Shown piece by piece: positions 35,601 through 55,020 of a DNA stretch of 59,586 nt (positions are counted from its first letter, which is position 1; each line of letters starts with the position of its first letter). Under the pieces are notes generated by a model, which saw only the letters and a program-made list of their open reading frames with translations, made no database searches and was not told the DNA's origin. The stretch is from Candidatus Chloroploca sp. Khr17 (GTDB lineage: Bacteria > Chloroflexota > Chloroflexia > Chloroflexales > Chloroflexaceae): contig NZ_RYFF01000020.1 in NCBI RefSeq assembly GCF_004138165.1, positions 33,982 through 93,567 of the forward strand, written 5' to 3'. The position numbers and the translations under genes were made by a program.

Positions 35601-36896
35601 CTATCGCCAATCGGCGATCATAATAGCGCTACCTCTGGAAGGAATGCCTCCTCCGCCAGCAACTCTTCGGCCATTGCCGTCGAGAACAGTAATAGTCACT
35701 TCTTGACCTACTTGCAAACCACATAAACGAGCATTCCCACCAGTATCAAAGCGACCACTTAGACCAATTCCATCCACCACGAAGTACCAACCTGCAGGAG
35801 TAATACCATTAATTTTAACCGAGATGCAACGAGGATCGTCATTGTAATTCACTACTCTGAACCGAAGCCTCTTAGCTTCAGGTTGAGGTGCTGGTACGGG
35901 TGTTGGTGGAGGTCTGAGACGATCTAAGGCTGCTTGCGCAACTGATGTATTTGAAATAGGGAGAGCGACAGCTTTGGCATAGATGCGTCGAGCATCACTA
36001 AGATTACCTTGCCGTTCGAGTTGTTCGCCATATGCAATGTATGCATCATAGAGCAGAGCATTGCTATCAAGAAAATTCGCTTGTATTGCAGCTAACTCCT
36101 CGAACTTAATTGCTGCATCACGCCATTGACGCTTCTTGTTCAATGCTACTCCATCAAGGTAGAGTACTAAGATTTGCTGCTGAGCAAGAGCCAACTGATG
36201 TGACGGATCAACGGCAAGCGCTGCATTGAATTTATCAAGTGCATCAACTGGCTGCTCTCCCCTAATGAGTTGAATTCCCCAATTGTAGTAGGTAGAACTC
36301 AACTTTTCGGTTACATCTAGATAGTTTCTGTCACTCTGGTAAATGGACTGAAAAGCATCGGCTGCATCACGCCATCGCTCTTTGGTGTAAGCATCGACTC
36401 CTTTCCTATAGTTTAGTGCGTTTACCGTTCGGGTATCTGGGGTTGGAGATCGTGCCGCGATAGAGGTTCTGGACGGAGAAGTTCTGGGTGTAGCTGAGGG
36501 CCTTTGTTGCTCTGGTCTAGAGGTCGGTTGAGTGCGCACCGGTGTAGCGGTATCAGCGCTGGCTACTACTACAGCAGCTGGCTCACGATTAGGCGACTGG
36601 CTAACCTCGGGAGGAGGTGTGCCATTACGCCCAATGATTACACCAATCAGCACCCCCACAATGAGCAAGACACCAACCCCGATTGCGATCACAATTGGTG
36701 GAAAAGTTCGTTGTGCTATGCCTCGTGTAGGCGGTGTTGACCGTTGAACCTGCTTTTCAGGAACATCAATCGGCCCCACCTCTTTCTGCTGGAGATACTG
36801 TTGATACTCTTCATCATTAGCATCGATCTCACCGTGTTTGTTAAATGTGGGCATAAACATCCTCGCCTGGCAAAAACGTGCGGTTAATTCCACCAC
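35601..36896 (-). CDS. Single-pass membrane protein with a Pro/Thr-rich linker and TPR-like repeats. It is the last gene of the minus-strand island.
   Basis: TM segment FPPIVIAIGVGVLLIVGVLIGVIIG, followed by TPR-like helical repeats. GC content is lower than the flanks. Confidence 0.55.
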   Translation of the reverse strand: MVELTARFCQARMFMPTFNKHGEIDANDEEYQQYLQQKEVGPIDVPEKQVQRSTPPTRGIAQRTFPPIVIAIGVGVLLIVGVLIGVIIGRNGTPPPEVSQSPNREPAAVVVASADTATPVRTQPTSRPEQQRPSATPRTSPSRTSIAARSPTPDTRTVNALNYRKGVDAYTKERWRDAADAFQSIYQSDRNYLDVTEKLSSTYYNWGIQLIRGEQPVDALDKFNAALAVDPSHQLALAQQQILVLYLDGVALNKKRQWRDAAIKFEELAAIQANFLDSNALLYDAYIAYGEQLERQGNLSDARRIYAKAVALPISNTSVAQAALDRLRPPPTPVPAPQPEAKRLRFRVVNYNDDPRCISVKINGITPAGWYFVVDGIGLSGRFDTGGNARLCGLQVGQEVTITVLDGNGRRVAGGGGIPSRGSAIMIADWR

Positions 36897-36931
36897 AACT
36901 GACTACAGATAAGAATACATAAGCGTACAAA

Positions 36932-37774
36932 TCAACGTGTTAAAGCGCGTTGAACCATTGCCGAAGGGCGCAGAGCTTGATCACTCTCGAGAAACGCCCG
37001 CGCCATCCGCATGGGTTGGTAGCGGCGCGAACCTACCACCACGACACTATCCTCAAGCGGATCCGCTAGATCCCAACGCCCCAGTCCATGACGTACCAGT
37101 ACCTCGCCGATGTAAGCACCAAATGTACGTACATTGGCTGTAAGCAGATCTTCATCCCGTAGGAATGTACGATGTTCATTGTCTACATTGAACTCGAAAC
37201 GTTCCAGGCTCTCGACGGAGTAGTCGAGAGCAAGATCTTCATAGAGTGCCGTACGAAAACGTTCAGCTAGGGTAGCCGGTTCGAGCTCTTCCGCATCCGT
37301 GTCTTCATCATACGTATCACCATTGAAGGCACGGTAGATGAGCTCAATGGTAGCTTGGAGGTGCGCTATCGTCTGAGTCACTGTTGCGGCCGTGAACGTT
37401 GGTAGTGGACGATCACAGATCAAGCAGAGGTCACGATCATGATCGAAAGATAGACATGCATCCACTAAGTCATTGTTCATTTGGCTCATTATCAATGCAA
37501 GGGGACTGATATCTTCCCCTTCCTCAGCCGCATACAAGGGCGTTATGCAAAAACGCACATACTCATCGCCAAGTGGCCCTATCTGGGGATATGCCATAAG
37601 ACGGAATGTGCCGCTCGTAGTAGGCCCAATCGGACACTCGATGTCGAAATAGATAATAGGTTGATCGCTATCAGGATCTTCAACGTCGTAGACAAGCCCT
37701 GCTGTGGTGAAAGCAGTCGTAAAAGATATAGACACAGGCTTACTCCTATTACGGTATCTGACGAATTTCCACAT
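36932..37774 (-). CDS. Acidic cytoplasmic hypothetical protein of 280 aa.
   Basis: ORF with reasonable codon usage. No recognised motifs. Confidence 0.5.
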   Translation of the reverse strand: MWKFVRYRNRSKPVSISFTTAFTTAGLVYDVEDPDSDQPIIYFDIECPIGPTTSGTFRLMAYPQIGPLGDEYVRFCITPLYAAEEGEDISPLALIMSQMNNDLVDACLSFDHDRDLCLICDRPLPTFTAATVTQTIAHLQATIELIYRAFNGDTYDEDTDAEELEPATLAERFRTALYEDLALDYSVESLERFEFNVDNEHRTFLRDEDLLTANVRTFGAYIGEVLVRHGLGRWDLADPLEDSVVVVGSRRYQPMRMARAFLESDQALRPSAMVQRALTR

Positions 37775-38390
37775 TTTTACGCTTCGCGGCTGTAATACGC
37801 TGCTTGATTATCGCATTTTGTTCAGGTGTGGTGTTCTTTGGCTTTGGAACCGCGACAACAAGATTGCTATTCTTGCTGGATAAAGCGTTTAATTCGGGAT
37901 TTTTATTTGATTTAAACTTCTTGTCCTTATAAGATTTGACTTGTGATATCTTTCTGTTGAGATTTTTTTGATCAACACCAGCGATACCCTTTACCGGTCG
38001 ATAATTTTCAATCAATTCAAATTTAAATTTTTTCGGATCAGTACTCCGCTTTAGCACCCTAAGTGTGTCAACACGTTTTCTATTCTCAAGTGCTACTTCA
38101 GAGAAAACATCTCCGCGCTTAATTTGCTTATAGTTTGGCGGTGTTTTTCCCTGCAAAGTAGTTGCAGACTTCGGTTTGCGATTGTGTAATTTTGCATGGT
38201 AATTTGTGGAGATTTTGTTGAATTTATGTCCATTAGCTGTATTTCGCCGCAGTTGTGTTCGCTTAAGCTCATTTGACGAAGAGACATTGCGTGCGGCAGC
38301 TTTCATTTTTGTTTTGGAGATCGGAACGGAGATGCTACTTCTATTTACTTTGGGTGTGCCATGCGTAGATTTGCTGCCAACTTTTTTCAT
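37749..38390 (-). CDS. Extremely Lys-rich basic low-complexity protein of 213 aa.
   Basis: MKKVGSKSTHGTPKVNRSS... with over 20% Lys. The coding DNA is only about 37-40% GC against the ~62% genome background. Confidence 0.5.
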   Translation of the reverse strand: MKKVGSKSTHGTPKVNRSSISVPISKTKMKAAARNVSSSNELKRTQLRRNTANGHKFNKISTNYHAKLHNRKPKSATTLQGKTPPNYKQIKRGDVFSEVALENRKRVDTLRVLKRSTDPKKFKFELIENYRPVKGIAGVDQKNLNRKISQVKSYKDKKFKSNKNPELNALSSKNSNLVVAVPKPKNTTPEQNAIIKQRITAAKRKNVEIRQIP

Positions 38391-38410
38391 TTCACACCCC
38401 TATACATTCA

Positions 38411-38977
38411 TTACTTCTTACGCACAATCTTTGGTCTGCCCTGGAAACGTCCGAGCCGCCGCGCCTGTTCGATATGCTGTTCGTTGCGCTCTTGCATCTG
38501 TGCAGCTTCAAAATCGCGCAGGATCTCGTCGGGTTTCTGTAGTGGTTCGGCATGGGGCATAAACATGCTGCTGAGTGCTGCCAACCCCACGAGACCATCA
38601 ACTGTCTTCACCGCAGTGTAGGCTTTGGCCTGATTGAACTTGCCTTTGAACCAATTTAGTTTAGATATTTGATTCGGTGTGGGGGATTTTGGCTGATTCG
38701 AGCCACGAACAGTAGGGTGCTGCAGACCTCCTCGCACGTTGCGTGTTGGCAACGTACTGCTTGGCTTCGCCTTAACTTGTTTTAGTGGTGGCGTCCGAAC
38801 CTTTGATGTTGGGTGCTTCGCCAGTTTGCGTGTCGCTTGCTGCAACTTGACTGGTGTAACCCGCTGCCGGGCGGTTGTTGAAGCAACTGGTTGTAGAGCA
38901 CGTACTGGCGGCGTAGGCTTTGGGGTATTGGGGTTGCTCACACCTGCCCCACTTTTAGTACTCCGATTAACCTTCAT
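38411..38977 (-). CDS. Basic Lys/Pro/Thr-rich protein of about 188 aa. It is a probable paralogue of the preceding gene (shared KVNRS N-terminus).
   Basis: Its ATG overlaps the TGA stop of the upstream ATPase gene (ATGA), which indicates translational coupling. Confidence 0.5.
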   Translation of the reverse strand: MKVNRSTKSGAGVSNPNTPKPTPPVRALQPVASTTARQRVTPVKLQQATRKLAKHPTSKVRTPPLKQVKAKPSSTLPTRNVRGGLQHPTVRGSNQPKSPTPNQISKLNWFKGKFNQAKAYTAVKTVDGLVGLAALSSMFMPHAEPLQKPDEILRDFEAAQMQERNEQHIEQARRLGRFQGRPKIVRKK

Positions 38978-41787
38978 GCGCCTGCTCCAATCAACATTTG
39001 CAGCACCTGGGCATCTACGGGTAAGCCCGAGTTGCGCATCCAATCAGCAGCCAAACGCAGGTAGACCCGTCGCACTTCGGCGTAGCGCGGGTGCGCACCA
39101 AATCGTGCCGTACAGATCTGCTCAATCTGGGTATGGTCCAGGGCACGATCTCCATAGCCCCCCAGAACATCTTCAATCGTTTCAGGCAAGCTATACCCAT
39201 CTTGTGCAAGCACCCACTTAGCTGCGGCATGGGGATCGTCCGGTAGGATGCTAACGGTCTGCACTTGGTTTGGCATCGGTGGCTGCCAGAGCGCCGCTGG
39301 CGGCATCTGCAACGGGCGGCGGGCCATCATCGCCTTCACGGCCTCATCGGAGTCATCAAAGATCGGGCGATCATCGGGCGTCTGAAAACGATCCAGGTAG
39401 TTGCCAACCTGCACGAAGATCGGGCGACTATCGGGGCCTCGTACAATCACTTGGCCCTGCCCGAGTGAGCGTACGTATTCGCGCTGACGCTCATTCAGGT
39501 TCATCACCTCACAGAAGAGCTTAAAGCTCTCCTGATCTTCGAGCCGATGCATGATTTTGAGGTTCGTATTGCCTAGCGCACCATTGACCAGTTGGGTTGG
39601 GATCTGCTCAGCGATCAAGATCCCTTCCCCAAACCCGCGCACCTCAGCCAAAATATTGGCGAAATCCTCTCCACCACGACTCCGTGCGTCAGCAAGATCT
39701 TCGCTACCCTTGTGTCCAGCCGACATAAGCCGATGGGCTTCTTCGATCAGAGTCATGTGCAGTTGTTTGCCGCGTTGTTCGGGTGGGAGGCGTTTGTAGC
39801 GGCTCTGCAATTCTTGGGTCAGTTGTACCAACAAAAAGGCCATAATCAGGGCGCTATCTTCGGGGGAGCCAACCCTTCCTAATTCCATGACGGTTGGCCG
39901 TGAGAGCACTACACTGAGCGGGGCTGGAGCCGTGGTATTGACAATTGTCCCTGCATTGAGCAGAAGATCACGCATGCGAATTTCGGCTGATTGGCGTACC
40001 CGGTCTTTGGCCTCCTCATCAAAGCCCGCCGTCATCAACTCGCTCACCGCAACGAGCGTCGTGTAGAACGCAGCCAAGGTGGGGGTGCCTACCCCCGGAT
40101 CGCCCCCCTTGCCCTGTTCGAGATTCCAACCTGCATCGGTATAGACCTGACGCAGGGCTGCGCGATAAATCGCTGGCAGAGGATCCCACATCGAGAAGGC
40201 GGCCATAAAACAGCGCATCAACAAACTGAGATGGGTCTTAAGCAAGATCCCCTCTGCCACGTAGAAGGGGTTGAAGCGGAAAGGCGTGGTGGTTTCATCA
40301 CCCAGCGTAAAAATTAGCAGATCGTCGGCCATTTGTGGGTCGGCCATGAGTAGCCGATAGTCCGGTTTGTCAATTGGGTACATCACCAGGAATGGTACCT
40401 GGTGGTCGGCCCAAAGTTGGGCCAGCATGTGCAGGCATGTGTTAGTTTTACCGCTTCCCGTAGCCCCTGCGATGAGACCGTGGCGGTTAAGGTCACGGAT
40501 CGGAATTTGCATATACTGGCCAGTACGCGTGCCACGATGGATGATCTCACCGAGGTTCAAACAGGGCACGTTGGTGAGCAGGCGATCGGTTGGCAAAACG
40601 AATGGCTCGTCGCGTACCTCAAGCCCGGGTAGATAACCACTCTCGGGGGGGATCGGCAGACGGAAGGCCCCCGCCGCTTGGTCGGTACTGACGAGATAGC
40701 GCAAGCGTACTGTCGCCTGATCAACGCGTGTTGGCCCCCAGGCTCCGTACTCAAGAAACGCAAAGTTATAACGTGCAATCGCCAGATCTTGATCATCCTT
40801 AGGGCTTTCGCTGGCCCATTGACGTGGCTCCGGCGTATTGTTTTGAATCAACTCGGAACCCAGCGCTTCCATTACATCATTAGGTGCATAATCCGATCCT
40901 ATCACTTGGATTTTTATGCGGAATAAATGATTTCTTTTGTTGATCAGAGGCATAAAGGTACGGGAAATATCATCAAAGCGTTCACGGCGATACAAATCAA
41001 ACCATGATTTGGACTCAACTTCTGCTGTGAGATTGCGATAACGTGAGAGCAGTAAGTTAATCTGGAGTAGCTCTTCGTGGAAGAGCACTGTTGGTCGCAA
41101 GCAGATGCTTGCGACACAGGTTTGCTCTTGTTGCACCAGCGTTTCTAAGAAGCGGCCAAAAGCAGAAGCATCAAAAACTGGACTAAAGGGATGTGGGAAG
41201 TAGCCAATGGCATCAGTACCTGCGTATGGATCAAAATCCTCAAACTTGCGAATCTCGACCAATTGGTTCATGCCTACCTGTTCAATGGGAATAGGTAACA
41301 TTGAACGCATGAAGTCGTCTTCGCCTAACGGCTCTAATGGGTAGTTGAAAGGATCTTCGAGAGGGTAGTGACTACGAAACTTGCACCAGAGCTGCCAGCA
41401 CAGATTTTTGGCGCGATTGCGGTTGGGATGGAAAGCCTTGCCAAGAAAGACAATCTCAATGGTTGGGCGATGTCCTGTCACTTGACTTGGTCGAGCAATA
41501 AACCGCAGATCGAAGGCGGCACTACCCTCGGCAATCATCCGAGCGTTGATCAAATCATTCAGGAAGCGGATTTGACGCAGCGTAATCAACCGAATACGAC
41601 TCAGTTCACCTCCACTGAGCGTACGCGTGAAATCGCTGGTTAAAAAACTAGGAATGAACGGCACCCGTGCTGCAAAGATAGCGTGCGCCCCCTGCTGGCG
41701 AGTGACTTGCACCCCACTACCCCCCCAACTCTCGGCATAGTGGAACTCATCGGGATTGCTGACGTAGATGAACGGCTCTTGCAACAT
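38974..41787 (-). CDS. HerA/FtsK-superfamily (DUF87/AAA_10-type) P-loop ATPase of 937 aa with a large N-terminal extension.
   Basis: Walker A GATGSGKTNT; Walker B plus EAH block HMTLIEEAHRL; sensor KIMHRL. AGGAAGG Shine-Dalgarno sequence upstream. Confidence 0.75.
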   Translation of the reverse strand: MLQEPFIYVSNPDEFHYAESWGGSGVQVTRQQGAHAIFAARVPFIPSFLTSDFTRTLSGGELSRIRLITLRQIRFLNDLINARMIAEGSAAFDLRFIARPSQVTGHRPTIEIVFLGKAFHPNRNRAKNLCWQLWCKFRSHYPLEDPFNYPLEPLGEDDFMRSMLPIPIEQVGMNQLVEIRKFEDFDPYAGTDAIGYFPHPFSPVFDASAFGRFLETLVQQEQTCVASICLRPTVLFHEELLQINLLLSRYRNLTAEVESKSWFDLYRRERFDDISRTFMPLINKRNHLFRIKIQVIGSDYAPNDVMEALGSELIQNNTPEPRQWASESPKDDQDLAIARYNFAFLEYGAWGPTRVDQATVRLRYLVSTDQAAGAFRLPIPPESGYLPGLEVRDEPFVLPTDRLLTNVPCLNLGEIIHRGTRTGQYMQIPIRDLNRHGLIAGATGSGKTNTCLHMLAQLWADHQVPFLVMYPIDKPDYRLLMADPQMADDLLIFTLGDETTTPFRFNPFYVAEGILLKTHLSLLMRCFMAAFSMWDPLPAIYRAALRQVYTDAGWNLEQGKGGDPGVGTPTLAAFYTTLVAVSELMTAGFDEEAKDRVRQSAEIRMRDLLLNAGTIVNTTAPAPLSVVLSRPTVMELGRVGSPEDSALIMAFLLVQLTQELQSRYKRLPPEQRGKQLHMTLIEEAHRLMSAGHKGSEDLADARSRGGEDFANILAEVRGFGEGILIAEQIPTQLVNGALGNTNLKIMHRLEDQESFKLFCEVMNLNERQREYVRSLGQGQVIVRGPDSRPIFVQVGNYLDRFQTPDDRPIFDDSDEAVKAMMARRPLQMPPAALWQPPMPNQVQTVSILPDDPHAAAKWVLAQDGYSLPETIEDVLGGYGDRALDHTQIEQICTARFGAHPRYAEVRRVYLRLAADWMRNSGLPVDAQVLQMLIGAGA

Positions 41788-41806
41788 ACGGGTGCCTTCC
41801 TGATCA

Positions 41807-43195
41807 CTAAGCGTAAGCGGTCATAACGGCTTCGACCAGCACAAGTAGATCGCACTGGGGCGTCCAGTTAGCGAGCGGTTCAGGCATGAAGCGCTGCTCT
41901 TGTCCATCGAACTCTACAAACATAGTTGGAGCCTCTTGGGGATACCGAGCCGTACAACTAAAATAGATGCCGAGGGTGTGCCCAAGCTGATCACGCAGGC
42001 TGACACTGACCAGGAAGACGTTCGCATCTTCGTGTAGGGCGGCGTTTAGTCCCTGTGCTAGCATTGCGCCTATCTCGTTGCGCAGGCGTTCGCCAGCACC
42101 TGCGCCGCTGAAGCGTGCGACGGGTGACGGTAAAGCGGGAACAGTCACACCATACATCCCTCCGAGAGTAGCTGTAGGTGGGGCTACGGCCTGTCCGGTG
42201 AGCGCCCCAAGCAACACCTGTTGAAGGTCATTGCTACCTGCCGCCGATGTCCCCATCGGCAGCATCCCCGCCTTCGCCATCTCGGTCAGGGCCAGTAAGC
42301 GTTGTCCATCTGTTTGCGCTTTATCACCAAAGACACGCGTGTACATGTCTGGATTGGTCAGCAAGAGATATTGCGGTGTCAATTCAATCATGCGCGAGAT
42401 ATTCATCTGTGTGAGCGCCTGTGCCATCGCAATCTCGGCCTGCGAGTTCGCCTGGATCTTCGCGACCTCGGCATCAGTTTGCGCCTCGCGGGTACGCATA
42501 TAAACGTCACGTAATTTCTTGTCCAGTTCTTCAGCACCCGCAATACGCGTGATCTGGACGTTCGAGACTCGTATTCCCAAGTTGTCTTCAATGCCGCGTT
42601 GCTGCAATTGCTGTGCAACCATGTAACCTGCATGACCGCCCGCCTGGAAATCCTGGTATTTAGCAATTGATGCAGTGATCGAACGAATTGATTCCATCAC
42701 CGTATCATAGAGCCTCGTGAGCGGCTGTTCGACGACAAGCGCAACGTGTTCAGGATGAATTATCTGATAACTGACTGCAACATCGAGATCAACTGGCAAT
42801 GCAATCTTCTCACCCTGGGGCGGCTGATAGAAAATCGTAAACTCCTTCGTCGTTGTTATATCCAGCGTGCGCTCACGCGTATTGACCACGTAGAGATCAA
42901 TGCGATTCATCACGGGAAACGAGAGCGCGTGATAACTCCCTTCTTGCAGCACTTCGAGCACTCTGCCATCCCCGGTCACAACGACGGTAGTGCCAGCCAT
43001 AACCCGAAAGATACGAAAGATACTGGTGAAGACATTGTTATGAACACGTACTGGACCAAAGACAAGGGGTGAATTACTTAGATCAGCAAACGGTTCACGC
43101 AGGAAGTCATCAAGCGAGCCCTGTCTGCTCGCTGCTTCCTTATCGTTAACGTGACGACGGTTTAGGGGCATGGTCTGGTCACGGTTAGTTCCCAT
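41807..43195 (-). CDS. SPFH/band-7 (stomatin/prohibitin-like) domain protein with a C-terminal UEV/RWD-like (inactive E2) domain.
   Basis: SPFH core VVVTGDGRVLEVLQEGSYH...DLDVAVSYQI plus a coiled-coil segment. C-terminal block GIYFSCTARYPQEAPTMFVEFDG carries the YPxxxP flap and lacks a catalytic Cys. Start placed at the ATG with an AGGAAGGAG Shine-Dalgarno sequence at 43195. Confidence 0.7.
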   Translation of the reverse strand: MGTNRDQTMPLNRRHVNDKEAASRQGSLDDFLREPFADLSNSPLVFGPVRVHNNVFTSIFRIFRVMAGTTVVVTGDGRVLEVLQEGSYHALSFPVMNRIDLYVVNTRERTLDITTTKEFTIFYQPPQGEKIALPVDLDVAVSYQIIHPEHVALVVEQPLTRLYDTVMESIRSITASIAKYQDFQAGGHAGYMVAQQLQQRGIEDNLGIRVSNVQITRIAGAEELDKKLRDVYMRTREAQTDAEVAKIQANSQAEIAMAQALTQMNISRMIELTPQYLLLTNPDMYTRVFGDKAQTDGQRLLALTEMAKAGMLPMGTSAAGSNDLQQVLLGALTGQAVAPPTATLGGMYGVTVPALPSPVARFSGAGAGERLRNEIGAMLAQGLNAALHEDANVFLVSVSLRDQLGHTLGIYFSCTARYPQEAPTMFVEFDGQEQRFMPEPLANWTPQCDLLVLVEAVMTAYA

Positions 43196-43229
43196 ACGAG
43201 CCAACTCCTTCCTGAGGCGCACAAGGTTG

Positions 43230-44453
43230 TTAGGTTTGATTGGGTAATATGCTAAGCTGAATGACCGGAAGATCAGCCAAGATGTCCGAAGCTTCGGCGG
43301 CTGCTTCTTGTTCACTCATCTTGAGGCTTTCGGCTACGAAAGCTGAATAGTTGCACACCGGACATTGAGCATTCTTCGGCACATCAATGAAGAGGCTCTC
43401 TAACGGCTGTTGAAAGATCCACTCCGCACGATTACCGAAGAGGAGCCAGTTCGTCGGCAGATCCGGTAGCGTGTTCTGCTTATCGCGCAGAAGCGTTAGT
43501 AACGCCATACGCGCCATTAACAGCGCAATCATACCCACATCAACCCCTAGACCTGGCTGAGCCAGTAATTCTTCCATACGTGCGGGATCTTCGTAACCCA
43601 GCGAGAAATCCTGTGTAGCGGCAGGGGGAGGGCCAAAAAAATCGGCAATGACGGTCTGAAAACAGGCGTAGCAAGCACCCTCGGAGGGAATTGCACGGAA
43701 GATATCACCCCCAAAGGCGCGATTGTAGGCTGCGGCATAGATAGCCGGGATCCCTCTTGGCCAGCACACGGTATTGACCGCCAACTTTGAGTCTTCATGA
43801 TCAGTAGCGACCACAACCAGATCACACCCGGTAACAATGGTAGCTAGTTGATCCTCATGGCCTAACACGTTCAACTCGTAGGTCTCGACGGTAATTGCGG
43901 GCGAGATGTCGTAGAGCAGATCGCGCAGGGCACGGGTCTTATAGCGCCCGATATCGTGGAGGCCACACGCATGACGTGCAATATTGTGAACTTTGAGCCG
44001 ATCAAAATCCACCAACCGCATCTGCCCTACTCCGCAACGAGCAAGCTGGCTCGCCACCACTGAACCACCTGAGCCGAGGCCAATCACGGCAATGCACGTA
44101 TTGGCGAGGCTGCTCACTTCAAAGATGCCGTGCATACGTGAGGCATAGTCAGTATGCAAACGGATGACGTTGCAGGAAATCGTTTCCCATCCAGTAGCCT
44201 TGCTTTGCCAACCAGCAACCTGATCTGGCAACTCATCGTCAATGTTGAGGACTATTTCTTCCGGGGCCAGTTCTGTTGTTGGCGGTACAGGGCTGCGATA
44301 CCAGCGACCTAGGTACGCACCGGACGCCTCAAGGATTCCCCTGATTTGCACGACATCGCCATCGTCATAACGGTAGCCGTAGAGCTTGCCCTCTGTCTGT
44401 GCAGCAGTACCAAGCAACTGGTTAATCAAGCTATCAGGAACGGTAAGAAACAT
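43230..44453 (-). CDS. E1-like ubiquitin-activating enzyme of the ThiF/MoeB/HesA family, with an N-terminal extension and a C-terminal Cys cluster.
   Basis: VIGLGSGGSVVASQLARCGVGQMRLVDFDRLKVHNIARH (GxGxxG plus a D-x-D ... NxxR block); LVVVATDH; CPVCNYS. Confidence 0.8.
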   Translation of the reverse strand: MFLTVPDSLINQLLGTAAQTEGKLYGYRYDDGDVVQIRGILEASGAYLGRWYRSPVPPTTELAPEEIVLNIDDELPDQVAGWQSKATGWETISCNVIRLHTDYASRMHGIFEVSSLANTCIAVIGLGSGGSVVASQLARCGVGQMRLVDFDRLKVHNIARHACGLHDIGRYKTRALRDLLYDISPAITVETYELNVLGHEDQLATIVTGCDLVVVATDHEDSKLAVNTVCWPRGIPAIYAAAYNRAFGGDIFRAIPSEGACYACFQTVIADFFGPPPAATQDFSLGYEDPARMEELLAQPGLGVDVGMIALLMARMALLTLLRDKQNTLPDLPTNWLLFGNRAEWIFQQPLESLFIDVPKNAQCPVCNYSAFVAESLKMSEQEAAAEASDILADLPVIQLSILPNQT

Positions 44454-44464
44454 CGGCAGACTCC

Positions 44465-45865
44465 CTATTGCAGTGGCTTCCCTTGATCTGGTTGAACCGA
44501 TGTTGGAAATACATAGCTGCGGTTGAACTCAGCGCAGAGGTCAGCCGCACTACGACAGGCCAGTTCAACTTGACGTACGATCAGACGACCTTGAAATTCG
44601 AGCAACTCACCAATGCGCTGGGATGGACGTGGTTGGGTCAAGGTTTCAAGCACATTGCGCACTACATCACGTAGGCGTATATGGGTACGCCAACCACCAG
44701 GAAAGAGTTGTTCAGTCACAATACGTACTACGTTATCATCACTCAACACGACTTGGACTTCAGGCGCTTGCTGCGGAAACTGTGAACCAGGATCAAGCTT
44801 AATAGCTTTGATCTGTAGCGGCTCTGTTTGCGCAACTGGCGCGACATTTACCATCCCCTCCGGCGTTTGCTGGGGTGCTGGGATTATCTCAGGGATATTC
44901 AGGGTCATTAGGGGCGGATGCGTAAAGGTAATCGTATACCAAACTCCGTTATCATCGCGCGTATGTACCTCCAGATGCGCCCCAGATCGCAAGGTCTGGC
45001 AGTACTGTTCCAGATCCTGTTGTTCGCGTGCAAAGCGGCCAGGAAGGGGAGGGATTGGCGGAATGCTTGCATCAGGTGGTGAACCTGAGAAAGGTGGTAT
45101 TTCAGGCGGCACGAAATCAGTCGCTGAACGACGAGTGTAAGAGGAACTTTCTAGATCGATGACCTCCAGGGTATCAGGAGGTTCCACATCTAGTGTGTAA
45201 GGTGAGGTATGTGGCTGCACCGGAGGATGGGAATGCAGATTGGCCCGGGCAGCACGGAGATCGGCCGGGTTGACTCCCCAGCGATCAGCAGTTCCTGATG
45301 TTGCGTGAGGAGGTTTTGGCGCAACTGTCTGTTGTTCTAGCGCAACCAGACCATCCAACAAGACGCGAAGGTCGCCTTCGACAAGCTCACATGGCACAGG
45401 CGTCGCACTCATCGTCTCACGGGGATAGTAGTGCCCATGGAGCAGAAATGTACCATCTTCAATGGTTACAAGTGGGGTGAAGATACCGTGGGGCAAATGA
45501 TAGGACTCATCGCTCAAGATATCGACCACCTGAAGCGTATCACCCGAACTTGGCCGATGCAAACCTGGCGGATGCTTATGCCACTCACCAACATAATCAA
45601 CGTGGTAGGTGGCGTAGTGCTGACGCCACGTTTCCAGGTCGCGTTGGCGAGCAAGTGCATCTGGAGCATAGGTATGCGCCCGTCGGTCGGCATTGCTACC
45701 AGGACCAGAGGCTGCCACAACGACGAGGTGGAGTCCATCGGGGAGTTGGAACATACGTCCAACCAGGATGCCGCCGGTCTCACGTCCAGGGCTCGTACAT
45801 GCCTCGTCGTACATCCGCTGATAGACATCTTGTTGGGCCAGATAGACGGTATTTGGTACTGGCAT
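44465..45865 (-). CDS. JAMM/JAB (MPN+) metalloprotease, a deubiquitinase-like protein, with a long Pro-rich C-terminal extension.
   Basis: ETGGILVG (Glu) and GEWHKHPPGLHRPSSGD (HxHx7SxxD). The start follows the E2 stop by 1 nt. Confidence 0.8.
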   Translation of the reverse strand: MPVPNTVYLAQQDVYQRMYDEACTSPGRETGGILVGRMFQLPDGLHLVVVAASGPGSNADRRAHTYAPDALARQRDLETWRQHYATYHVDYVGEWHKHPPGLHRPSSGDTLQVVDILSDESYHLPHGIFTPLVTIEDGTFLLHGHYYPRETMSATPVPCELVEGDLRVLLDGLVALEQQTVAPKPPHATSGTADRWGVNPADLRAARANLHSHPPVQPHTSPYTLDVEPPDTLEVIDLESSSYTRRSATDFVPPEIPPFSGSPPDASIPPIPPLPGRFAREQQDLEQYCQTLRSGAHLEVHTRDDNGVWYTITFTHPPLMTLNIPEIIPAPQQTPEGMVNVAPVAQTEPLQIKAIKLDPGSQFPQQAPEVQVVLSDDNVVRIVTEQLFPGGWRTHIRLRDVVRNVLETLTQPRPSQRIGELLEFQGRLIVRQVELACRSAADLCAEFNRSYVFPTSVQPDQGKPLQ

Positions 45866-45866
45866 G

Positions 45867-46322
45867 TTAGTCTGCCTCAATTCCAGGCCAATAGGTTTTC
45901 CCTGACTCAAGCCAGGTTTCGTAGGCAAAGAACCAAGCGGCGGCTACCGCGATCACGGTTGCTGCCGTGGTTTGCTGGGCAAACGAACGATCACCAGGGT
46001 AGTAGAGGCATAGGTGTCCATCGTTATACTGGTGCTTGAGGCGGCCTGCTTGCTCGTCCTTCCAGACGGTAATCGCTGGGTTAATGGGATAAACTTTAGG
46101 CGGATCATCGGGAAAGTTGTCAGGATAGTAGAGTGCAATCTCATAGCGCCTTTCGCGATTACTCTCTAAGGTGCCGATCCAGACCAACTGGTTACTATCA
46201 CGCACGAGCTGAAACTGGGGAAAGCGCGTTTCCATAGCTCTCTTTTCCAGTACGAGTCGTGCGGGATTAAGGTCATACCACGCTGCATACCAGCGCATCG
46301 GACGGAGAATAGTTTGGCCCAT
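45867..46322 (-). CDS. E2-like ubiquitin-conjugating enzyme with a prokaryotic UBC fold and a catalytic Cys.
   Basis: ALYYPDNFPDDPPKVYPINP flap plus HQYNDGHLCLYYPGD. This is analogous to the UBC HPN...GxICL active site. Confidence 0.75.
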   Translation of the reverse strand: MGQTILRPMRWYAAWYDLNPARLVLEKRAMETRFPQFQLVRDSNQLVWIGTLESNRERRYEIALYYPDNFPDDPPKVYPINPAITVWKDEQAGRLKHQYNDGHLCLYYPGDRSFAQQTTAATVIAVAAAWFFAYETWLESGKTYWPGIEAD

Positions 46323-46387
46323 CGTAACTACCCTTATTCGTTGCTGCTTAACAGTGCTTTAGATGTCTATGTCCACAAGTGGATCGT

Positions 46388-46588
46388 TTATGCTCGTGTA
46401 AATAGGGCAAACCAGCGCTGCGGTTTAAGCACTGTCTTGCTCTGTGGATCGGTCTGCGCGACCTTGGGATCTTCTGGGACGTGCATCTTGCCATCCGGAC
46501 TGACGACAACTTCCTGTGCGGTGGCAAGACGCTTCTTAAGTTCTTCCAGGCTGGATTGTGGGCTACGAGGGGGTTGTGGCGTGCTCAT
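46388..46588 (-). CDS. Small hydrophilic ORF of 66 aa in the 318-nt gap between the membrane UEV gene and the E2 gene. Its coding status is doubtful.
   Basis: MSTPQPPRSPQSSLEELKKRL... There is no beta-grasp-like hydrophobic pattern and no C-terminal GlyGly. Confidence 0.2.
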   Translation of the reverse strand: MSTPQPPRSPQSSLEELKKRLATAQEVVVSPDGKMHVPEDPKVAQTDPQSKTVLKPQRWFALFTRA

Positions 46589-46640
46589 GGTGGTGTACCT
46601 CCTGGGATTTGCTGACACGACTGGTATACGTACAAGGGAA

Positions 46641-47357
46641 TTAGATAATACGTTCGGTATATTGTGCCCAAACCGACTGTTGCGTCGGTGGCTGGTTCGT
46701 GACTTGAGCATAAGAAATGAGGCCCAAAAGGTTGTTGACCACTGCCAGCAGTGAACTATTGCCATTCCAACTGCGCAGAACAGACGAATCAAGTGCGAGG
46801 TGATGTTCGGCTAGTTCACCACAGGCATCAAACCCGAGCATGGTGGCAATGAGCTGCGGTGCGATAATTGGATAGTCATCCGTACAAATGAGATGGATCG
46901 AGACATTCTCCCCATCACTCCGTGCCACCCGGATCTGAACACAGTACTCTTCGACATCCGGGCGCCCGGCGAGGCTCACCGCCTCGTAACCATTACTGCG
47001 TAACTTCGCTACTTCTTGCGTCAAACGTTGCACCACATTTATTGGGGTAACATCAATCACTTGGCGACTTGCAACTGGGGTTCCGGCTGGTGTAAAACCA
47101 CCCGCGCCGGAACTCCAGGTTGGTACCTGCGATGAAAGCGTCGAAGTGTCTTCATGGATTGGCATTGGAGGCGGGCGCATGGTGGGACTAGCCGGTGGGA
47201 GAATGAACGCTTTACCCTGTTTTGATGTTACTTCTGATTGGCTCGTTGTGGCGCGTCGCCCACTCCCGCCTCGTTGGAGTACGAAGACAACGAGGATCAG
47301 GACGACGAGAACGAGGACGCCCCCACCAGCAATGATCAGCAGAATTGATGTATCCAA
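46641..47357 (-). CDS. N-terminally membrane-anchored protein with a C-terminal UEV/RWD-like domain.
   Basis: TM segment ILLIIAGGGVLVLVVLILVVFVL. The UEV-like block EEYCVQIRVARSDGENVSIHLICTDDYPIIAPQL has no Cys at the catalytic position. TTG start preceded by an AGGAGG Shine-Dalgarno sequence. Confidence 0.6.
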   Translation of the reverse strand: MDTSILLIIAGGGVLVLVVLILVVFVLQRGGSGRRATTSQSEVTSKQGKAFILPPASPTMRPPPMPIHEDTSTLSSQVPTWSSGAGGFTPAGTPVASRQVIDVTPINVVQRLTQEVAKLRSNGYEAVSLAGRPDVEEYCVQIRVARSDGENVSIHLICTDDYPIIAPQLIATMLGFDACGELAEHHLALDSSVLRSWNGNSSLLAVVNNLLGLISYAQVTNQPPTQQSVWAQYTERII

Positions 47358-47365
47358 GACGCCTC

Positions 47366-49150
47366 CTAGCGGGGTATGATGCGTACCAGATAAGTCGCAC
47401 TGGTACTCAGATCCAGGTTCGCTTCGCCTACCATCGGCAATTCCGCCAGGCTCAGCAAGTAACGTCCACTGGGTAGGGCCGCACTCGCGACACCTGTCTG
47501 ATCAGTCACGATCTGGCGATTGCCGCTCGATCCCACAAGGTTGAGTACCAGATTAGAGGTAGGTGCAATAATCAGCAGATTGACCGGATCGCCATTGATC
47601 TGCGTTGCGAGACGACGATCCGTAAGCAAACGCGTCCATTCAGATGCATCGAGTCGGGTTGTAATGATTTGATAGGCACTCGTGCTTGCAAGCAAAGCTT
47701 CGGCTTCGCGCTTGAGTTGGCGCGCACTTTCCCCACGATCCTCTGCAACCTGAGCAAGGCTAAGTGCGGCGTTGGCCTGAGCGAGCGCGTCGGTGCCAAC
47801 TGTCCCGCCGCGTTCGAGCAAGGCTAGACCGTAACCGACATAAGAATCGTAGAGCCACTGCTCGACGGTGCGTACCGCAGGGTCGCTTGTGTTAGGCCTT
47901 AATTGCACGGCCTGTTCAAGTTCGCTGATCAGGGCGGGCCATGTAGCGACACTTGCATCGCGGAATTGTGTCGCCCGTGCAATCCACTTCAAACGATCAG
48001 CTAGTCCTTCAAGATCTTGCTCCAGAGTTGCAGCAAGTACATAATGCTCGTGAGACTCAATGACATCCGTGGCAAAGAGGAGGTCACCCCATGCCAGCTG
48101 GGCTTGTGCCAAGCGGGTCTTGACGCCTATCGCTGCTTCAGGACTCTGCGCTTCAGGGTGGAGAACATGGATCTGTTCAAGCAGGGCTACTACTTGTGCC
48201 CAACTTGCCGTGGTATTCACTGCCCATAGTTGCTCGGCCTCAGTCCAGAGCGTCTTCGTCCGGGCTTCGATAACAGCAACTAGTCCAGCCTGAGCATCAG
48301 AGGAGGCTGGATCAAGCGCGAGAGCCTGGCGAAACATGGCTTCCGCCTGATCAAGTTGGTTCGCTTCGAGGAGTGCGGACGCATAACGCTCATAGGCGGT
48401 GATGAGCGGGATTGGATTGGCAACCAGGCTACCGCAACTACCACCCACCCCGCTCTGACCACGGTTGTGCATTGCTTCGAGGGTATGGGTTACTTGCGCG
48501 AGGGATTCGCGATCACCGACTGCATAGGCTTGAGCCACGAACTGCTGCTCGGAAGCGCACGGATCGTAGAGCAAGGTATAGTAGAGTAGCAACCCCCCGG
48601 CAATGAGCAGGGTGACACCTCCACCTACCACGGCTAAGATCTTCCCTGTGGCGGAACGACGCGTTGGGGTAGGAAGGGGACGTTCTTCACGAGGTGGCAA
48701 CTCCTTAGGGAATGGCACATCAAGTGGTGGCATGGGGGCCACCGGTTCAGCAATGCGTGCAAGCCGTAGATTGGAACTCTGTACGCTGTCCTGGACTTCC
48801 AGAACGATTTCGTAGAGCATCTGGCGACTCGACCAACTGAGACGGGTTTTTGACTCGACATCAATCGGGAGTTCTTGTAACTCGCCGTAGCTTGTTGTGC
48901 CGGGTGTGGTCACGGTGACCACAAGATTGGGCGCCGTAGCTGGAAAATTTGCATCAAGCTGGAAGTAGAGATGCACCGGCTGTGGCCCTTCGTGCGTGTC
49001 ACGAACCAACTCTACTGTTAAGTAGTAGCGCTGAGCACTCGCGTCCTGCTGGAGGTCGCAAGCATAGCCCATATCACGGATGGCCTTGACCTCTTGACCA
49101 ATGCGCTCAGCGTGACTTTGGTCAGCGGCCATGGGGGGGAGGGATGACAT
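47366..49150 (-). CDS. N-terminal UEV/RWD-like domain, then one TM helix, then an extracytoplasmic TPR-like helical-repeat region. 594 aa.
   Basis: YYLTVELVRDTHEGPQPVHLYFQLDANFPATAPNLVV; TM segment ILAVVGGGVTLLIAGGLLLYYTLLY; TPR-like repeats. Confidence 0.65.
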   Translation of the reverse strand: MSSLPPMAADQSHAERIGQEVKAIRDMGYACDLQQDASAQRYYLTVELVRDTHEGPQPVHLYFQLDANFPATAPNLVVTVTTPGTTSYGELQELPIDVESKTRLSWSSRQMLYEIVLEVQDSVQSSNLRLARIAEPVAPMPPLDVPFPKELPPREERPLPTPTRRSATGKILAVVGGGVTLLIAGGLLLYYTLLYDPCASEQQFVAQAYAVGDRESLAQVTHTLEAMHNRGQSGVGGSCGSLVANPIPLITAYERYASALLEANQLDQAEAMFRQALALDPASSDAQAGLVAVIEARTKTLWTEAEQLWAVNTTASWAQVVALLEQIHVLHPEAQSPEAAIGVKTRLAQAQLAWGDLLFATDVIESHEHYVLAATLEQDLEGLADRLKWIARATQFRDASVATWPALISELEQAVQLRPNTSDPAVRTVEQWLYDSYVGYGLALLERGGTVGTDALAQANAALSLAQVAEDRGESARQLKREAEALLASTSAYQIITTRLDASEWTRLLTDRRLATQINGDPVNLLIIAPTSNLVLNLVGSSGNRQIVTDQTGVASAALPSGRYLLSLAELPMVGEANLDLSTSATYLVRIIPR

Positions 49151-49207
49151 AGCAACTACTCTCTTGTAAGCGACGCGAATGCCCAGCGTTGACGAGCCTT
49201 ACGAAAC

Positions 49208-50017
49208 TCAGATCCGGCCATAGAGATCAGTAACAATCGTTGCCAGACGACACGAACCGTCCCAGGGGAAGAAGATTCCGGAACCAATATTGAGCGAGGT
49301 GCCATGGCGCTCGACAACCACGGAAGGTGGTTGCTGAGGGTAAGTTGGCTCACACACCATATAGATCGTCGTCCCATCCTGTGGTCGGGTAACGGTTACG
49401 CAGCACGTGCCGTCTTGGAGGGTATTGATCTGGACGGTGCCAAATTGGGCCAGTGCTATGCGCTCACCAGCGATACGCTCGGCGAGATCCAAACTAGGAC
49501 GAGGTGTGGCTCCCCCTACCGTCTGGTGCGGGCTAGGTGGTGGATCAGGTGGTAGTAATGGCCCCGAACTACGTAGCCCAGCAGTAGGGGAGGCGTTCGT
49601 TCTAGCTATGAGTCCGCTCGTCCGGAGATTGCCGTCCGACCTAGAGGCTATAGTAGGCCCGCGGCCCATTGAACTGCCAAGCACGAGGCCAAGCAGTAGG
49701 CCGGGAGCTGTCCCAAGCAGCATTGCCACACTGTACATACGCAAACTCCCAAGGGCTAGTCCTAGATTATCGCTCAGCAGCATATTTAGGACACCACAAA
49801 GCAGCACAAAGACGAGCGCACTAGCTGCGGGGCCAACGAAGATCGCCCAGTGGTAACCTTGTGCGACACGCCCGCGTAAGAGTAGACCTCCACCCAGGCC
49901 CCCGATGATCAGCCCGATCATTGCCAGAGCTAGAACCACCAGCGGGTTCGTGCTGATCAATAGGCCCATGCCCAGGAAGAAGAGACAACTGACGATGATA
50001 ACCATTGCTGCAAGCAT
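49208..50017 (-). CDS. Four-TM membrane domain fused to a C-terminal UEV/RWD-like domain.
   Basis: N-terminal 4 hydrophobic helices. C-terminal block TTIYMVCEPTYPQQPPSVVVERHG. Confidence 0.6.
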   Translation of the reverse strand: MLAAMVIIVSCLFFLGMGLLISTNPLVVLALAMIGLIIGGLGGGLLLRGRVAQGYHWAIFVGPAASALVFVLLCGVLNMLLSDNLGLALGSLRMYSVAMLLGTAPGLLLGLVLGSSMGRGPTIASRSDGNLRTSGLIARTNASPTAGLRSSGPLLPPDPPPSPHQTVGGATPRPSLDLAERIAGERIALAQFGTVQINTLQDGTCCVTVTRPQDGTTIYMVCEPTYPQQPPSVVVERHGTSLNIGSGIFFPWDGSCRLATIVTDLYGRI

Positions 50018-50020
50018 GGG

Positions 50021-52735: not shown

Positions 52736-53202
52736 GCATCCTCCGAGACGACATGGGGTGCGAACGTTAGGACATCACTTTCTGATGAACATAATCTTGA
52801 TTCTTGAATAAGGTTCAGCGTCTTAATCTTGGTGAGCGATCTCTCTCTATAATCTTAGTAACAATCTTTGGAGGTTTGCGCTTGTGTTTTTTGCTCTGGT
52901 TGATCAAGGTGGTCAGGCTTGAACGCAGGGAAGCAGCGCACGCGGGCATGGTGACCGTGGTCGCTCGGTGAACGAACGAGATTCTTCAGTTCTTGGTTCG
53001 CATATGTACCGCAATTGCAGCTTCGGGCCGTGAACCGCGCGGCTTGTGGGCAGCGAAGGCTACCTGCGTGGCCTGATCCAGCCGACGAAGGTCGGCTTTG
53101 CCATGCGTCGCCGCCGCGTTGACGCCGACGGTCTGGGCGGATGGGTGCGTTCTGCCGGTTGGGGAATTTGCGCGCCTGGCTTTAGTGTCGTATCATGATA
53201 CT

Positions 53203-53469
53203 ATGGAGCTAAGCAGTCGCCACCGCAAGATGCTACGGGCCGTTTTTGCTGATCCCGTTCGCGCTGACGTGAAGTGGGCGGACGTTGAGACGCTGCTGCA
53301 TGCGCTTGGTGTCGACATTGGCGAAGGAAGAGGGTTACGCGTCCGGATCCAACTCAACGGTGTGCGCGCCGTCTTTCATCGACCGCATCCTATCCCGGAT
53401 ACCGACAAAGGTGCGCTTAGGTCATTACGACGGTTCCTAATAGAAGCAGGTGTGAAGCCGGAGGAATGA
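53203..53469 (+). CDS. hicA: HicA-like (YcfA family) type II toxin, an mRNA interferase.
   Basis: KMLRAVFADP...DVETLLHALG...GVRAVFHRPHP...ALRSLRRFLIEAGV fits the HicA pattern GSH...HP...vtvPhP...l..aGl. Start uncertain; the ORF track begins at 53098. Confidence 0.6.
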   Translation: MELSSRHRKMLRAVFADPVRADVKWADVETLLHALGVDIGEGRGLRVRIQLNGVRAVFHRPHPIPDTDKGALRSLRRFLIEAGVKPEE

Positions 53470-54152: not shown

Positions 54153-54956
54153 ATGAAGAGTGCACCTATGGACTATCAGCATCCCTCCGTCGATCAGATG
54201 ACGTTGCACAAGATAATTGCCCAGTGCAATGCTGAATTTGGGTGGGGGCTCAGTGCAAGTGAGCTTGAGTCTTATGCGCAGTCGCTTGTGCGCTGTCTGC
54301 CTGAGCATGTCGATCAGGTGAAGCTTACGCAGATGGTGCTGTATTATCATCAGGATCATCAGCAGGTTGCGGCGCTGCAAAATAGATCCCATCCAGACCA
54401 TGATCAGTTCTGGACGATCTGGTTGCATGACGTGGCGCAGGTGATTAACCGGGGTAAGATGGCGTCACTTGGCGATCATGCGCTTGATGCTGATGATCTT
54501 GCCCAGACGGCGCTCGATGAAATGTCACGCTCGCTCAAGAATTTCAAATACCAGAGCAGCCTGAAGACTTGGGTGTATAGATTAGTTGTGCAGACTTCCC
54601 GCCGGATGCTGCGCGATCTTCGTGCGAAGAAGCGTCCGCGTGGGGTTGCGTCGTTAGATGAGTTGCCTGAGGAGGCGTTGGCGCTCTGTGATGCTTGTGA
54701 GCCCGATGAAGAAGCATGTGGCGAGATGTTGATTGGGTTGACGTGCGCGTTGCTTGAGCGGATCAAAGATCAACGTATGGCTCAGATCTTCTATCTTGCC
54801 GCCGTTGATGACCTCTCGACTGCGCAGATCGGCAACATCGTGCATCTCCATCCGTCACGGGTGCGGGCGTTGTTGCAGCAGGCTCGCACGTTGTTGCAAG
54901 AACGCCCGGAAATTCAGGCGTGGCTCGCGGATCACGAAGCTTCCCCGTTCGTCTAA
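54153..54956 (+). CDS. Sigma-70-family (ECF-like) RNA polymerase sigma factor with an N-terminal extension of about 100 aa.
   Basis: Region-2 block DDLAQTALDEMSRSLKNFKYQSSLKTWVYRLVVQTSRRML. Region-4 HTH LSTAQIGNIVHLHPSRVRALLQQARTLL. Confidence 0.75.
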   Translation: MKSAPMDYQHPSVDQMTLHKIIAQCNAEFGWGLSASELESYAQSLVRCLPEHVDQVKLTQMVLYYHQDHQQVAALQNRSHPDHDQFWTIWLHDVAQVINRGKMASLGDHALDADDLAQTALDEMSRSLKNFKYQSSLKTWVYRLVVQTSRRMLRDLRAKKRPRGVASLDELPEEALALCDACEPDEEACGEMLIGLTCALLERIKDQRMAQIFYLAAVDDLSTAQIGNIVHLHPSRVRALLQQARTLLQERPEIQAWLADHEASPFV

Positions 54957-55005: not shown

Positions 55006-55020
55006 CTTGATGTATCTCCA

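Follow-up and report, generated by a model that had tools for sequence, protein, structure and literature searches.

Gene organisation of the operon tail

The window, that is, the whole stretch of 59,586 nucleotides (nt) analysed from Candidatus Chloroploca sp. Khr17 (contig NZ_RYFF01000020.1, positions 33,982 to 93,567), carries on its minus strand an operon of ubiquitin-like type with genes for E2, JAB, E1 (ThiF), SPFH and HerA-like ATPase proteins. Two genes for very basic proteins, here called A and B, lie at its 3' end and are followed by genes for an acidic protein, C, and for a transmembrane (TM) protein with tetratricopeptide repeats (TPR). An initial annotation rightly placed A and B at the tail of this operon, and described them as paralogous, Lys-rich, unstructured proteins that could be acceptors for conjugation or nucleic-acid-binding effectors. 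The best reading of the tail reached here is that of an effector module and not of a duplicated acceptor pair, in which B would be a nuclease partnered by C, and A and B would not be paralogues; about even confidence is placed in this combination. The features of the module are as follows.

38411-38977, minus strand: protein A, open reading frame (ORF) of 188 aa, read from the sequence
38648..38977, minus strand: N-terminal polybasic tail of A, ~110 aa, isoelectric point (pI) 12.0, no acidic residue, rich in Lys, Arg, Pro and Thr
38411..38647, minus strand: C-terminal domain of A, ~75 aa, conserved
37749-38390, minus strand: protein B, ORF of 213 aa, read from the sequence
38121..38390, minus strand: N-terminal polybasic tail of B, ~90 aa, pI 11.8
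37749..38120, minus strand: C-terminal domain of B, probably a nuclease of the PD-(D/E)xK class (restriction-endonuclease fold) like the EC869 CdiA-CT toxins
36932-37735, minus strand: protein C, 267 aa, GTG start 7 nt past AGGAG
38974..38977, minus strand: ATGA overlap of the ATPase stop and the A start, read from the sequence, translational coupling

Orthologous loci and coding status

Two orthologous loci were compared with the window, one on a Logan metagenome contig (L001) and one in Oscillochloris trichoides DG6 (L002). The order E2-JAB-E1-SPFH-ATPase-A-B-C-TM/TPR is identical in both; in L001 only the start portion of the TM/TPR gene is present after C. In L002 the terminal TM/TPR gene occurs in tandem duplicate (14840-15739 and 15781-16995, plus strand), and the first copy is without the C-terminal domain of ~100 residues. 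The likely start of the window gene, MPTFNKHGEID, matches those of its orthologues.

The ATG of A (38977-38975) overlaps the TGA of the ATPase gene (38976-38974) as ATGA on reading of the sequence, as the initial annotation had pointed out. This 4-nt overlap is GTGA in L001 and ATGA in L002, and a 4-nt ATGA overlap is also found at the ATPase stop codon of a more distant locus, L005. Since the stop-overlapping start is kept in three loci, it argues for translational coupling and for a 188-aa A, and the sequence thus favours this form over the NCBI annotation of 176 aa, which starts at an internal GTG. B starts 20 nt past the stop of A, preceded by GGGGTG, and C starts 13 nt past the stop of B; all junctions from the ATPase through A, B and C to the TM/TPR gene are tight or overlapping. 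No excess of terminators was seen along the tail genes. Rfam, tRNA and tandem-repeat searches gave no alternative reading of the region, and promoter and terminator scans were uninformative.

Divergence between the loci follows the order third > first > second codon position in all segments examined, with values for the first, second and third positions of 0.34, 0.21 and 0.72 in the C-terminal domain of B and 0.25, 0.20 and 0.51 in that of A. This order indicates protein-coding selection on A and B, which, together with the gene order kept in three loci, shows that they are real genes, as originally annotated, and not AT-rich non-coding DNA.

Linkage to E1/E2 genes, which the initial annotation had proposed for checking, held wherever homologues were found: those of A and B are confined to the same E1/E2/JAB-HerA operon, in about two or three genomes out of the billions of proteins searched. 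Word-based homology searches returned only B itself and one metagenomic orthologue for B, and only A itself for A. A profile of A run against 5.8 billion proteins returned the Khr17 and L001 sequences only, and an exhaustive HMMER search with the B domain against 1.84 billion cluster representatives returned only the two known proteins. No homologues of C were found in viral contigs and plasmids. Genome and metagenome scans based on the ATPase returned only the Oscillochloris locus, L003 (an actinobacterial ATPase, 31% identical, in an unrelated context), L004 (a locus on an incomplete contig) and L005, in which the ATPase is 58% identical, A, B and C are absent, and a CHAT-like protease region lies within the operon. 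The presence of this region without A, B and C suggests that the effector part varies, and L005 may have lost its tail module or had another put in its place. At L005 12886-13188 (plus strand), an ATGA-coupled 100-aa ORF is strongly acidic and low-complexity, not polybasic, and next to it (13369-13683, minus strand) lies a transposase fragment. Overall, the operon is rare and recorded only in filamentous Chloroflexota. In the full-text literature searched, and in comparative-genomics papers on prokaryotic ubiquitin-like systems as far as term look-ups reached into them, no description of this operon type was found.

Composition and base content

Calculated pI values are 11.7 for A and 11.0 for B, so that both proteins are hyper-basic as described. 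The accompanying statement that each has over 20% Lys and Arg applies to B (24.4%, with 16.9% Lys) but not to A (19.1%, with 10.6% Lys). The corresponding background is 6.5% for Arg and 1.9% for Lys, the latter taken over the window's 32 long ORFs.

The low-GC patch to which both genes had been assigned is made up of B, C and the TM/TPR gene. B has 39.1% GC and a GC content at third codon positions (GC3) of 0.37, whereas A, with 52.9% GC and a GC3 of 0.51, lies outside the patch; the remaining operon has 52-57% GC. The background had been put at 62% GC, whereas the measured mean of the window is 57.2%. GC3 is 0.37-0.46 in B, C and the TM/TPR gene and 0.61-0.74 in the flanking genes. The whole 35.6-52.7 kb operon is a lower-GC island (GC3 0.37-0.57), most of its genes lying at 0.46-0.57 and B, C and the TM/TPR gene being the lowest. 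In all three loci, the gene in the position of B has a lower GC3 than its neighbours (0.37 vs 0.57, 0.71 vs 0.94, and 0.51 vs 0.69), which fits a swappable cassette of more recent acquisition.

Every orthologue of A and B has 10-17% Lys, even at a GC3 of 0.91 in L001, and so has the non-homologous Oscillochloris protein in the position of B. Since this content is kept even at such a GC3, it appears that Lys itself is maintained and that the composition is not a mere product of AT-rich DNA.

Proteins A and B are not paralogues

The initial annotation had called A and B paralogous and pointed to a shared N-terminal motif, (T)PKVNRS(S/T). The motif is present, as MKVNRST in A and TPKVNRSS in B, but it is absent from the orthologues of both proteins. 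Shuffled versions of the two proteins have a 5-mer in common at any position in 5% of cases; if it must lie among the first 25 residues of each, the figure falls to 0.1%, in a test that is post hoc. BLASTP of A against B gives E = 1.6, and each protein ends in a distinct conserved domain. Paralogy was therefore rejected, and the proteins are not simply unstructured, as had been assumed.

The tail of A is only 27-32% identical to those of its orthologues and contains many indels, and its Lys content is 10-11% in all three loci, L001 (GC3 0.91) included. Its composition is thus kept without its sequence. The C-terminal domain, by contrast, is 49-64% identical among the three orthologues and consists of a hydrophobic helix, VDGLVGLAALSSMFM, a second helix, DEILRDFxAAQxQERN, and a basic end, PKI(V/T)RxK. 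Over 19 residues, VDGLVGLAALSSMFM has a hydropathy of 1.2-1.45, a value at the border of those expected for a membrane helix. This is under the usual threshold, and the idea that A is a clear membrane protein was dropped. No match to the C-terminal domain was found in Pfam, NCBIfam, PADLOC, PHROG or PDB, and at the level of sequence it is a true orphan. A ends in PKIVRKK and matches no ubiquitin-like protein (Ubl) family in Pfam that would make it a beta-grasp Ubl. The earlier statement that A and B belong to no named family was borne out in Pfam, PADLOC, NCBIfam and PHROG.

Protein B and its slot

B residues 40-213 are 57% identical to the L001 orthologue; the conserved domain comprises the last ~125 residues, and the tail is weakly conserved. 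The sole Pfam match of B is to PF21111 (CDI_toxin_EC869_like), the restriction-endonuclease domain of EC869-like toxins of contact-dependent inhibition (CDI). It scores 19.2 bits (E = 0.0015) and aligns residues 142-209 with positions 58-120 of the 123 in the profile; the L001 orthologue matches the same family with 13.8 bits (E = 0.07). The predicted secondary structure, beta3-alpha-alpha-beta-alpha-beta, resembles that of the restriction endonuclease (REase) fold in an AlphaFold2 (AF2) model of confidence (pLDDT) 47. FokI, N.BspD6I, Shedu, Can1, EcoT38I, MUS81 and Hef, all REase-fold nucleases, are among the matches listed for B, and the top four Foldseek matches, which are not significant, include EndoMS and 4zqu_A. 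Although sequence searches leave this domain an orphan, two unlike methods converge on one small family. The structures 4G6U and 4ZQU are Zn-dependent PD-(D/E)xK DNases with the active site E177/D198/S209/K211 (PMC9086364). Residues E98, D108, K123, E125 and E128 of B are invariant between the window and L001. B ends in EIRQIP and matches no Ubl family in Pfam, so that it is not recognised as a beta-grasp Ubl either, and PADLOC, NCBIfam and PHROGs gave no usable match, with no NurA or other defence-nuclease model among them. A DNase activity is predicted for the window B, and the earlier proposal of a nucleic-acid-binding effector comes close for this protein.

In Oscillochloris, the place between A and C is held by a protein of 219 aa with a polybasic tail of ~75 aa and 14.2% Lys overall. 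Its domain belongs to YraN/UPF0102 (PF02021, 24.7 bits against a cut-off of 23.6; NCBIfam YraN, 3e-8) and has an intact D...EVK endonuclease motif (GIDII...FTEVK). The window B does not match YraN/UPF0102 (PF02021), hhalign of window-type B with the Oscillochloris protein gave a probability of 0.1%, which is not significant, and BLASTP found no similarity between the tails. Since an unrelated protein has the same size and plan, it appears that the B slot is held by exchangeable nuclease cassettes; as far as sequence comparison can tell, the slot is one for a Lys-rich tail plus an REase-fold nuclease.

Protein C

C is acidic, with a pI of 4.25 in the window and 4.2-4.7 across the loci, and the three versions of it contain 0-1 Lys each, the window protein of 267 residues having none. 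A statistical anomaly was considered in the Lys-free composition and dropped, the proteome having only 1.9% Lys. Two operon proteins, C (36932-37735, minus strand) and one encoded at 49208-50017 (minus strand), of 267 and 269 aa, are without any Lys; this is only mildly unusual because of the low Lys content of the window proteome.

The N-terminal half of C is 48% identical to that of L001, which has the same type of B, and 23% identical to that of L002, which has a different type. The C-terminal half is 63% and 59% identical, respectively, and the ATPase, 78% and 74%, is about equally distant in the two. The N-terminal half therefore drops only where B was replaced, while the C-terminal half and the ATPase stay, and it changes with the nuclease cassette as a cognate partner would.

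The N-terminal domain of C was predicted by single-sequence AF2 (pLDDT 52) as alpha-beta3-alpha-beta-alpha. The top Foldseek match, obtained with this pLDDT-52 model, was DR_1245 (4h5b; probability 0.99, E 0.06, TMt 0.53), a YbjN homologue that resembles type III secretion system (T3SS) chaperones and is a partner of a DNA-binding protein, the ssDNA-binding DdrB (PMC3575483). Pfam YbjN (PF10722) was matched by the L002 orthologue of C only, with 18 bits (E = 0.0034) against a gathering score of 22 bits. Comparison of C with E. coli YbjN by hhalign was not significant, and PADLOC, NCBIfam and PHROGs gave no usable match. On the model, the N-terminal half of C appears YbjN- or T3SS-chaperone-like, and the C-terminal half is a conserved domain of unknown fold. 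C may therefore be viewed as a candidate cognate neutraliser or chaperone of B.

The ATPase and the ubiquitin-like machinery

The other operon genes on which the interpretation draws are listed below.

38974..41787, minus strand: HerA/FtsK-superfamily P-loop ATPase, 937 aa, directly upstream of A
35601..36854, minus strand: TM/TPR protein, last operon gene, single-pass membrane protein; Pfam TPR_2 and TPR_14
45867-46322, minus strand: E2 of the type found in the cyclic-oligonucleotide-based anti-phage signalling system (CBASS); PADLOC E2, 2e-24
44465-45928, minus strand: JAB peptidase; Pfam Prok-JAB, 2.5e-8; PADLOC JAB, 2e-15
43230-44453, minus strand: E1/ThiF; Pfam ThiF, 5e-35; PADLOC E1-E2, 6e-41

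The ATPase matches HerA_C (4e-8), FtsK_SpoIIIE, DUF87 and the TraG/TrwB P-loop in Pfam, mad8 (1e-18), HerA (5e-10) and several HerA models in PADLOC, and the DNA-translocating ATPase CedD (5e-13) and HerA (29 bits against a cut-off of 800) in NCBIfam. By these matches it belongs to the HerA/FtsK superfamily, its best named relatives being the DNA-translocating ATPases CedD and HerA, together with mad8. The tail is not a recognisable HerA-nuclease defence pair or HerA-NurA system, since the HerA match is weak and A and B match no PADLOC model.

The E2 of L001 has a precomputed assignment to PF26395 (E2-CBASS). Among the larger proteins of the operon, Pfam scans revealed no CD-NTase or other cyclase and no cyclic-nucleotide-sensing effector. 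The E2 of the window has its active-site Cys in HLCLYYP. The operon spans ~17 kb (35601-52735, minus strand) and encodes two JAB proteins and an SPFH-RWD protein; at least six of its proteins have RWD/UEV-like 'YPxxxP' domains, several of these proteins also having TM segments and TPR repeats.

Just upstream of E2 lies a conserved ORF of ~62 aa (window ~46388-46590, minus strand; L001 570-758; L002 5255-5443; L005 ~2870-3058). Its C-terminus consists of an invariant KPQRWF with 0-6 variable residues after it (ALFTRA, AR, SA or none), which is the pattern of a peptidase-trimmed modifier precursor, but with a Phe end rather than Gly. At L005 6267-8399, the same module, as ...VRPIRWF|AGP..., lies inside a 710-aa protein, between an RWD-like N-terminus and the CHAT-like protease region. 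The KPQRWF module could represent the moiety that the operon conjugates, or else a site of cleavage by JAB. The N-terminus of E2 (45867-46322, minus strand) reads ...LRPMRWY, or RPMRWH in L002, and resembles the KPQRWF end of the upstream ORF; the likeness may reflect a common recognition element or what is left of a duplication.

Proposed function and alternatives

A possible working of the tail module can be described as follows. B would be a DNA-targeting PD-(D/E)xK nuclease with a catalytic domain of the EC869 CdiA-CT type, and its Lys-rich, disordered tail of ~90 residues would serve for non-specific DNA binding, or be held by an acidic partner, or both. C, as a cognate neutraliser or chaperone, would keep B inert in the manner of an immunity protein. 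A, the translation of which is coupled in a fixed way to that of the HerA/FtsK-like ATPase, may act as an adaptor or DNA-binding subunit and would be a stoichiometric partner of this enzyme. On the pattern of HerA-nuclease machines, the ATPase would bring DNA to the nuclease, and the upstream E1, E2 and JAB would form a control layer that determines when the module is unleashed. The comparison shows that the genes are real, under coding selection and syntenic, that the tails keep their composition but not their sequence, that the nuclease domain in the B slot was replaced, and that the N-terminal half of C changed with it; the DNase activity of the window B, the interactions of B with C and of A with the ATPase, and the link to conjugation are what we infer.

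Several points weigh against this proposal. The PF21111 match of B lies under the Pfam gathering threshold of 27 bits, Foldseek of the B model against PDB gave nothing significant (all E >= 0.1), the AF2 models of B and C are of low confidence (pLDDT 47 and 52), and PDB sequence-profile searches with A, B and C gave chance matches only, such as ribosomal proteins and epimerases. The canonical D...(D/E)xK triad cannot be mapped onto B, as there is no ExK, no obvious (D/E/S)xK and no residue-level alignment to 4G6U. The co-variation of C with B is a single replacement event among three loci, and the absence of Lys from C is unexceptional in a proteome with 1.9% Lys, another operon protein, of 269 aa, also being without it. 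Finally, the link of A, B and C to E1/E2 consists in co-operonic position, and the C-terminal domain of A is without assigned function.

The Lys-rich tails of A and B could alternatively be dedicated acceptors for the E1/E2, switched by conjugation and JAB deconjugation, an idea close to that of the initial annotation and compatible with a nuclease function of B, but rather unlikely. Their Lys content is 5-9 times the proteome background and is kept at 10-17% in every orthologue (GC3 0.91 in L001) and in the non-homologous Oscillochloris slot protein; the partner C has almost no Lys in any of the three loci, and a candidate small modifier with the invariant KPQRWF end adjoins E2. Such tails are, however, equally expected for the binding of DNA or of an acidic chaperone, proteins without Lys are no rarity in the window proteome, and the closest relatives, the CBASS-type E1/E2, conjugate the C-terminus of their cognate enzyme rather than a free Ubl (PMC10097602). 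A more specific version, which we regard as quite speculative and improbable, is that the substrates of conjugation come from the operon itself: the CBASS-like E1/E2 would attach the JAB-trimmed KPQRWF protein to the tails of A and B, and either this attachment or its reversal would release the nuclease from C or pass it on to the ATPase. It is also unlikely that A and B are substrates of a protein-translocating FtsK/HerA-like ATPase, comparable to the coupling protein of type IV secretion or the EccC of type VII secretion, which, with C as a chaperone and with the membrane proteins of the operon, would unfold the toxin B, and A as well, for export to neighbouring cells. The weak ATPase matches to TraG/TrwB coupling-protein, conjugative ATPase and EccC P-loop models would agree with export, as would the predicted T3SS-chaperone-like fold of C, the fact that EC869-type domains are otherwise delivered toxins (PMC9086364), the conserved basic end PKI(V/T)RxK of A, and the SPFH and several TM/TPR proteins of the operon. 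The matches to secretion ATPases, however, cover the P-loop only and are far below cut-offs, and the better ones are to DNA-translocating HerA/CedD-type enzymes. No obvious membrane segment is seen in the ATPase translation, no channel component was identified in the operon, and YbjN-family proteins need not be secretion chaperones (PMC5398634).

That A and B are histone-like or nucleoid proteins (Lys/Ala/Pro-rich, as in H1, Hc1 or AlgP) which adjoin the operon by chance is very unlikely. The tail of A in L001 does contain H1-like runs such as SPAKAAKAVPA, and the pI of 11-12 would suit such proteins. Against this, no histone-like, HU or H1 family was matched (in Pfam, NCBIfam or PHROG), each protein has a conserved non-histone C-terminal domain, and every locus shows the coupling of the A start with the ATPase stop; moreover, the homologues occur in three genomes out of billions of proteins and only inside this operon, which is why A and B are not common HU/H1-like proteins. 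The low GC, the low-complexity translations and the lack of family matches might suggest chance open frames in AT-rich non-coding DNA, but conservation refutes this practically beyond doubt: the frames stay open with similar length and order in three genomes at a local GC of 39% to 72%, divergence is greatest at third positions while the C-terminal domains remain 49-64% identical, and sequences resembling ribosome-binding sites (RBS) and start/stop coupling are present, and searches for an Rfam, tRNA or tandem-repeat alternative found none.

Comparison with known systems

The EC869/TA271-type CdiA-CT nucleases (PF21111; 4G6U, 4ZQU) with their CdiI partners are among the closest known likenesses of an effector formed by B and C. 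Unlike them, B is a stand-alone cytoplasmic protein of 213 aa and not the tip of a giant CdiA, is encoded in a Chloroflexota host, and has no VENN/pretoxin region, the polybasic tail being in place of the cytoplasm-entry domain; its PF21111 match does not reach the threshold, and the active site of E/D/SxK type (PMC9086364) could not be mapped onto it. In contrast to CDI and other polymorphic toxins, B has its own RBS-like sequence, and the operon includes no large secreted carrier and no CdiA/CdiB-like gene. The proposed partner C, encoded directly downstream of B, resembles YbjN in its predicted N-terminal fold and has a further conserved domain at its C-terminus; a likeness between C and CdiI did not turn up, although no direct comparison aimed at CdiI was made.

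The HerA-nuclease machines (archaeal HerA-NurA, the NCBIfam anti-phage HerA and the PADLOC HerA/mad8 systems) resemble the tail in having a HerA/FtsK-superfamily ATPase beside a nuclease in one operon. By analogy, this suggests that the ATPase loads DNA onto the nuclease or activates it. The window ATPase differs from theirs in its 937 aa, with ~400 N-terminal residues of unknown fold and a HerA match over the P-loop core only, and the window module adds the polybasic A and the acidic C and is embedded in an E1/E2/JAB operon. The E1, E2 and JAB are most similar to the models of type II CBASS, Cap2 (E1-E2) and Cap3 (JAB). However, E1 and E2 are separate genes here, and the operon instead has RWD-like membrane and TPR proteins, SPFH, the HerA-like ATPase and the A-B-C tail. 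Compared with YbjN and DR_1245, the N-terminal domain of C has the same predicted alpha-beta3-alpha-beta-alpha order, and the acidic C is encoded beside long basic disordered regions, the kind of segment that such chaperones hold; YbjN is only half as large as C, which has a second, better-conserved domain of unknown fold. Overall, the module is apparently a toxin-type REase nuclease and its partner in an unusual architecture within an apparently undescribed ubiquitin-like/HerA operon.

If B is an EC869-type DNase, a CDI toxin domain would have been reused as a stand-alone, polybasic-tailed effector in an E1/E2/JAB-SPFH-HerA operon, and the module would be a concrete output for a bacterial ubiquitin-like system in which no CBASS cyclase was found. 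The plan of a Lys-rich tail plus a nuclease, kept across non-homologous genes, is a clear case of selection on composition over sequence. If it is true that the tails are conjugation targets, the operon would provide multicellular Chloroflexota with a switch of ubiquitination-like type, complete in itself, that controls a DNase effector and uses a modifier ending in Phe and not in Gly. With the extreme rarity of the module (two or three genomes), its general importance is uncertain.

Neighbouring genes

Upstream of the operon, an ORF of 123 aa (53098-53469, plus strand) has a C-terminal part that looks like a HicA toxin, an impression from the translation only. Beyond it, at 54153-56084, lies a pair of genes for an extracytoplasmic function (ECF) sigma factor and its anti-sigma factor.

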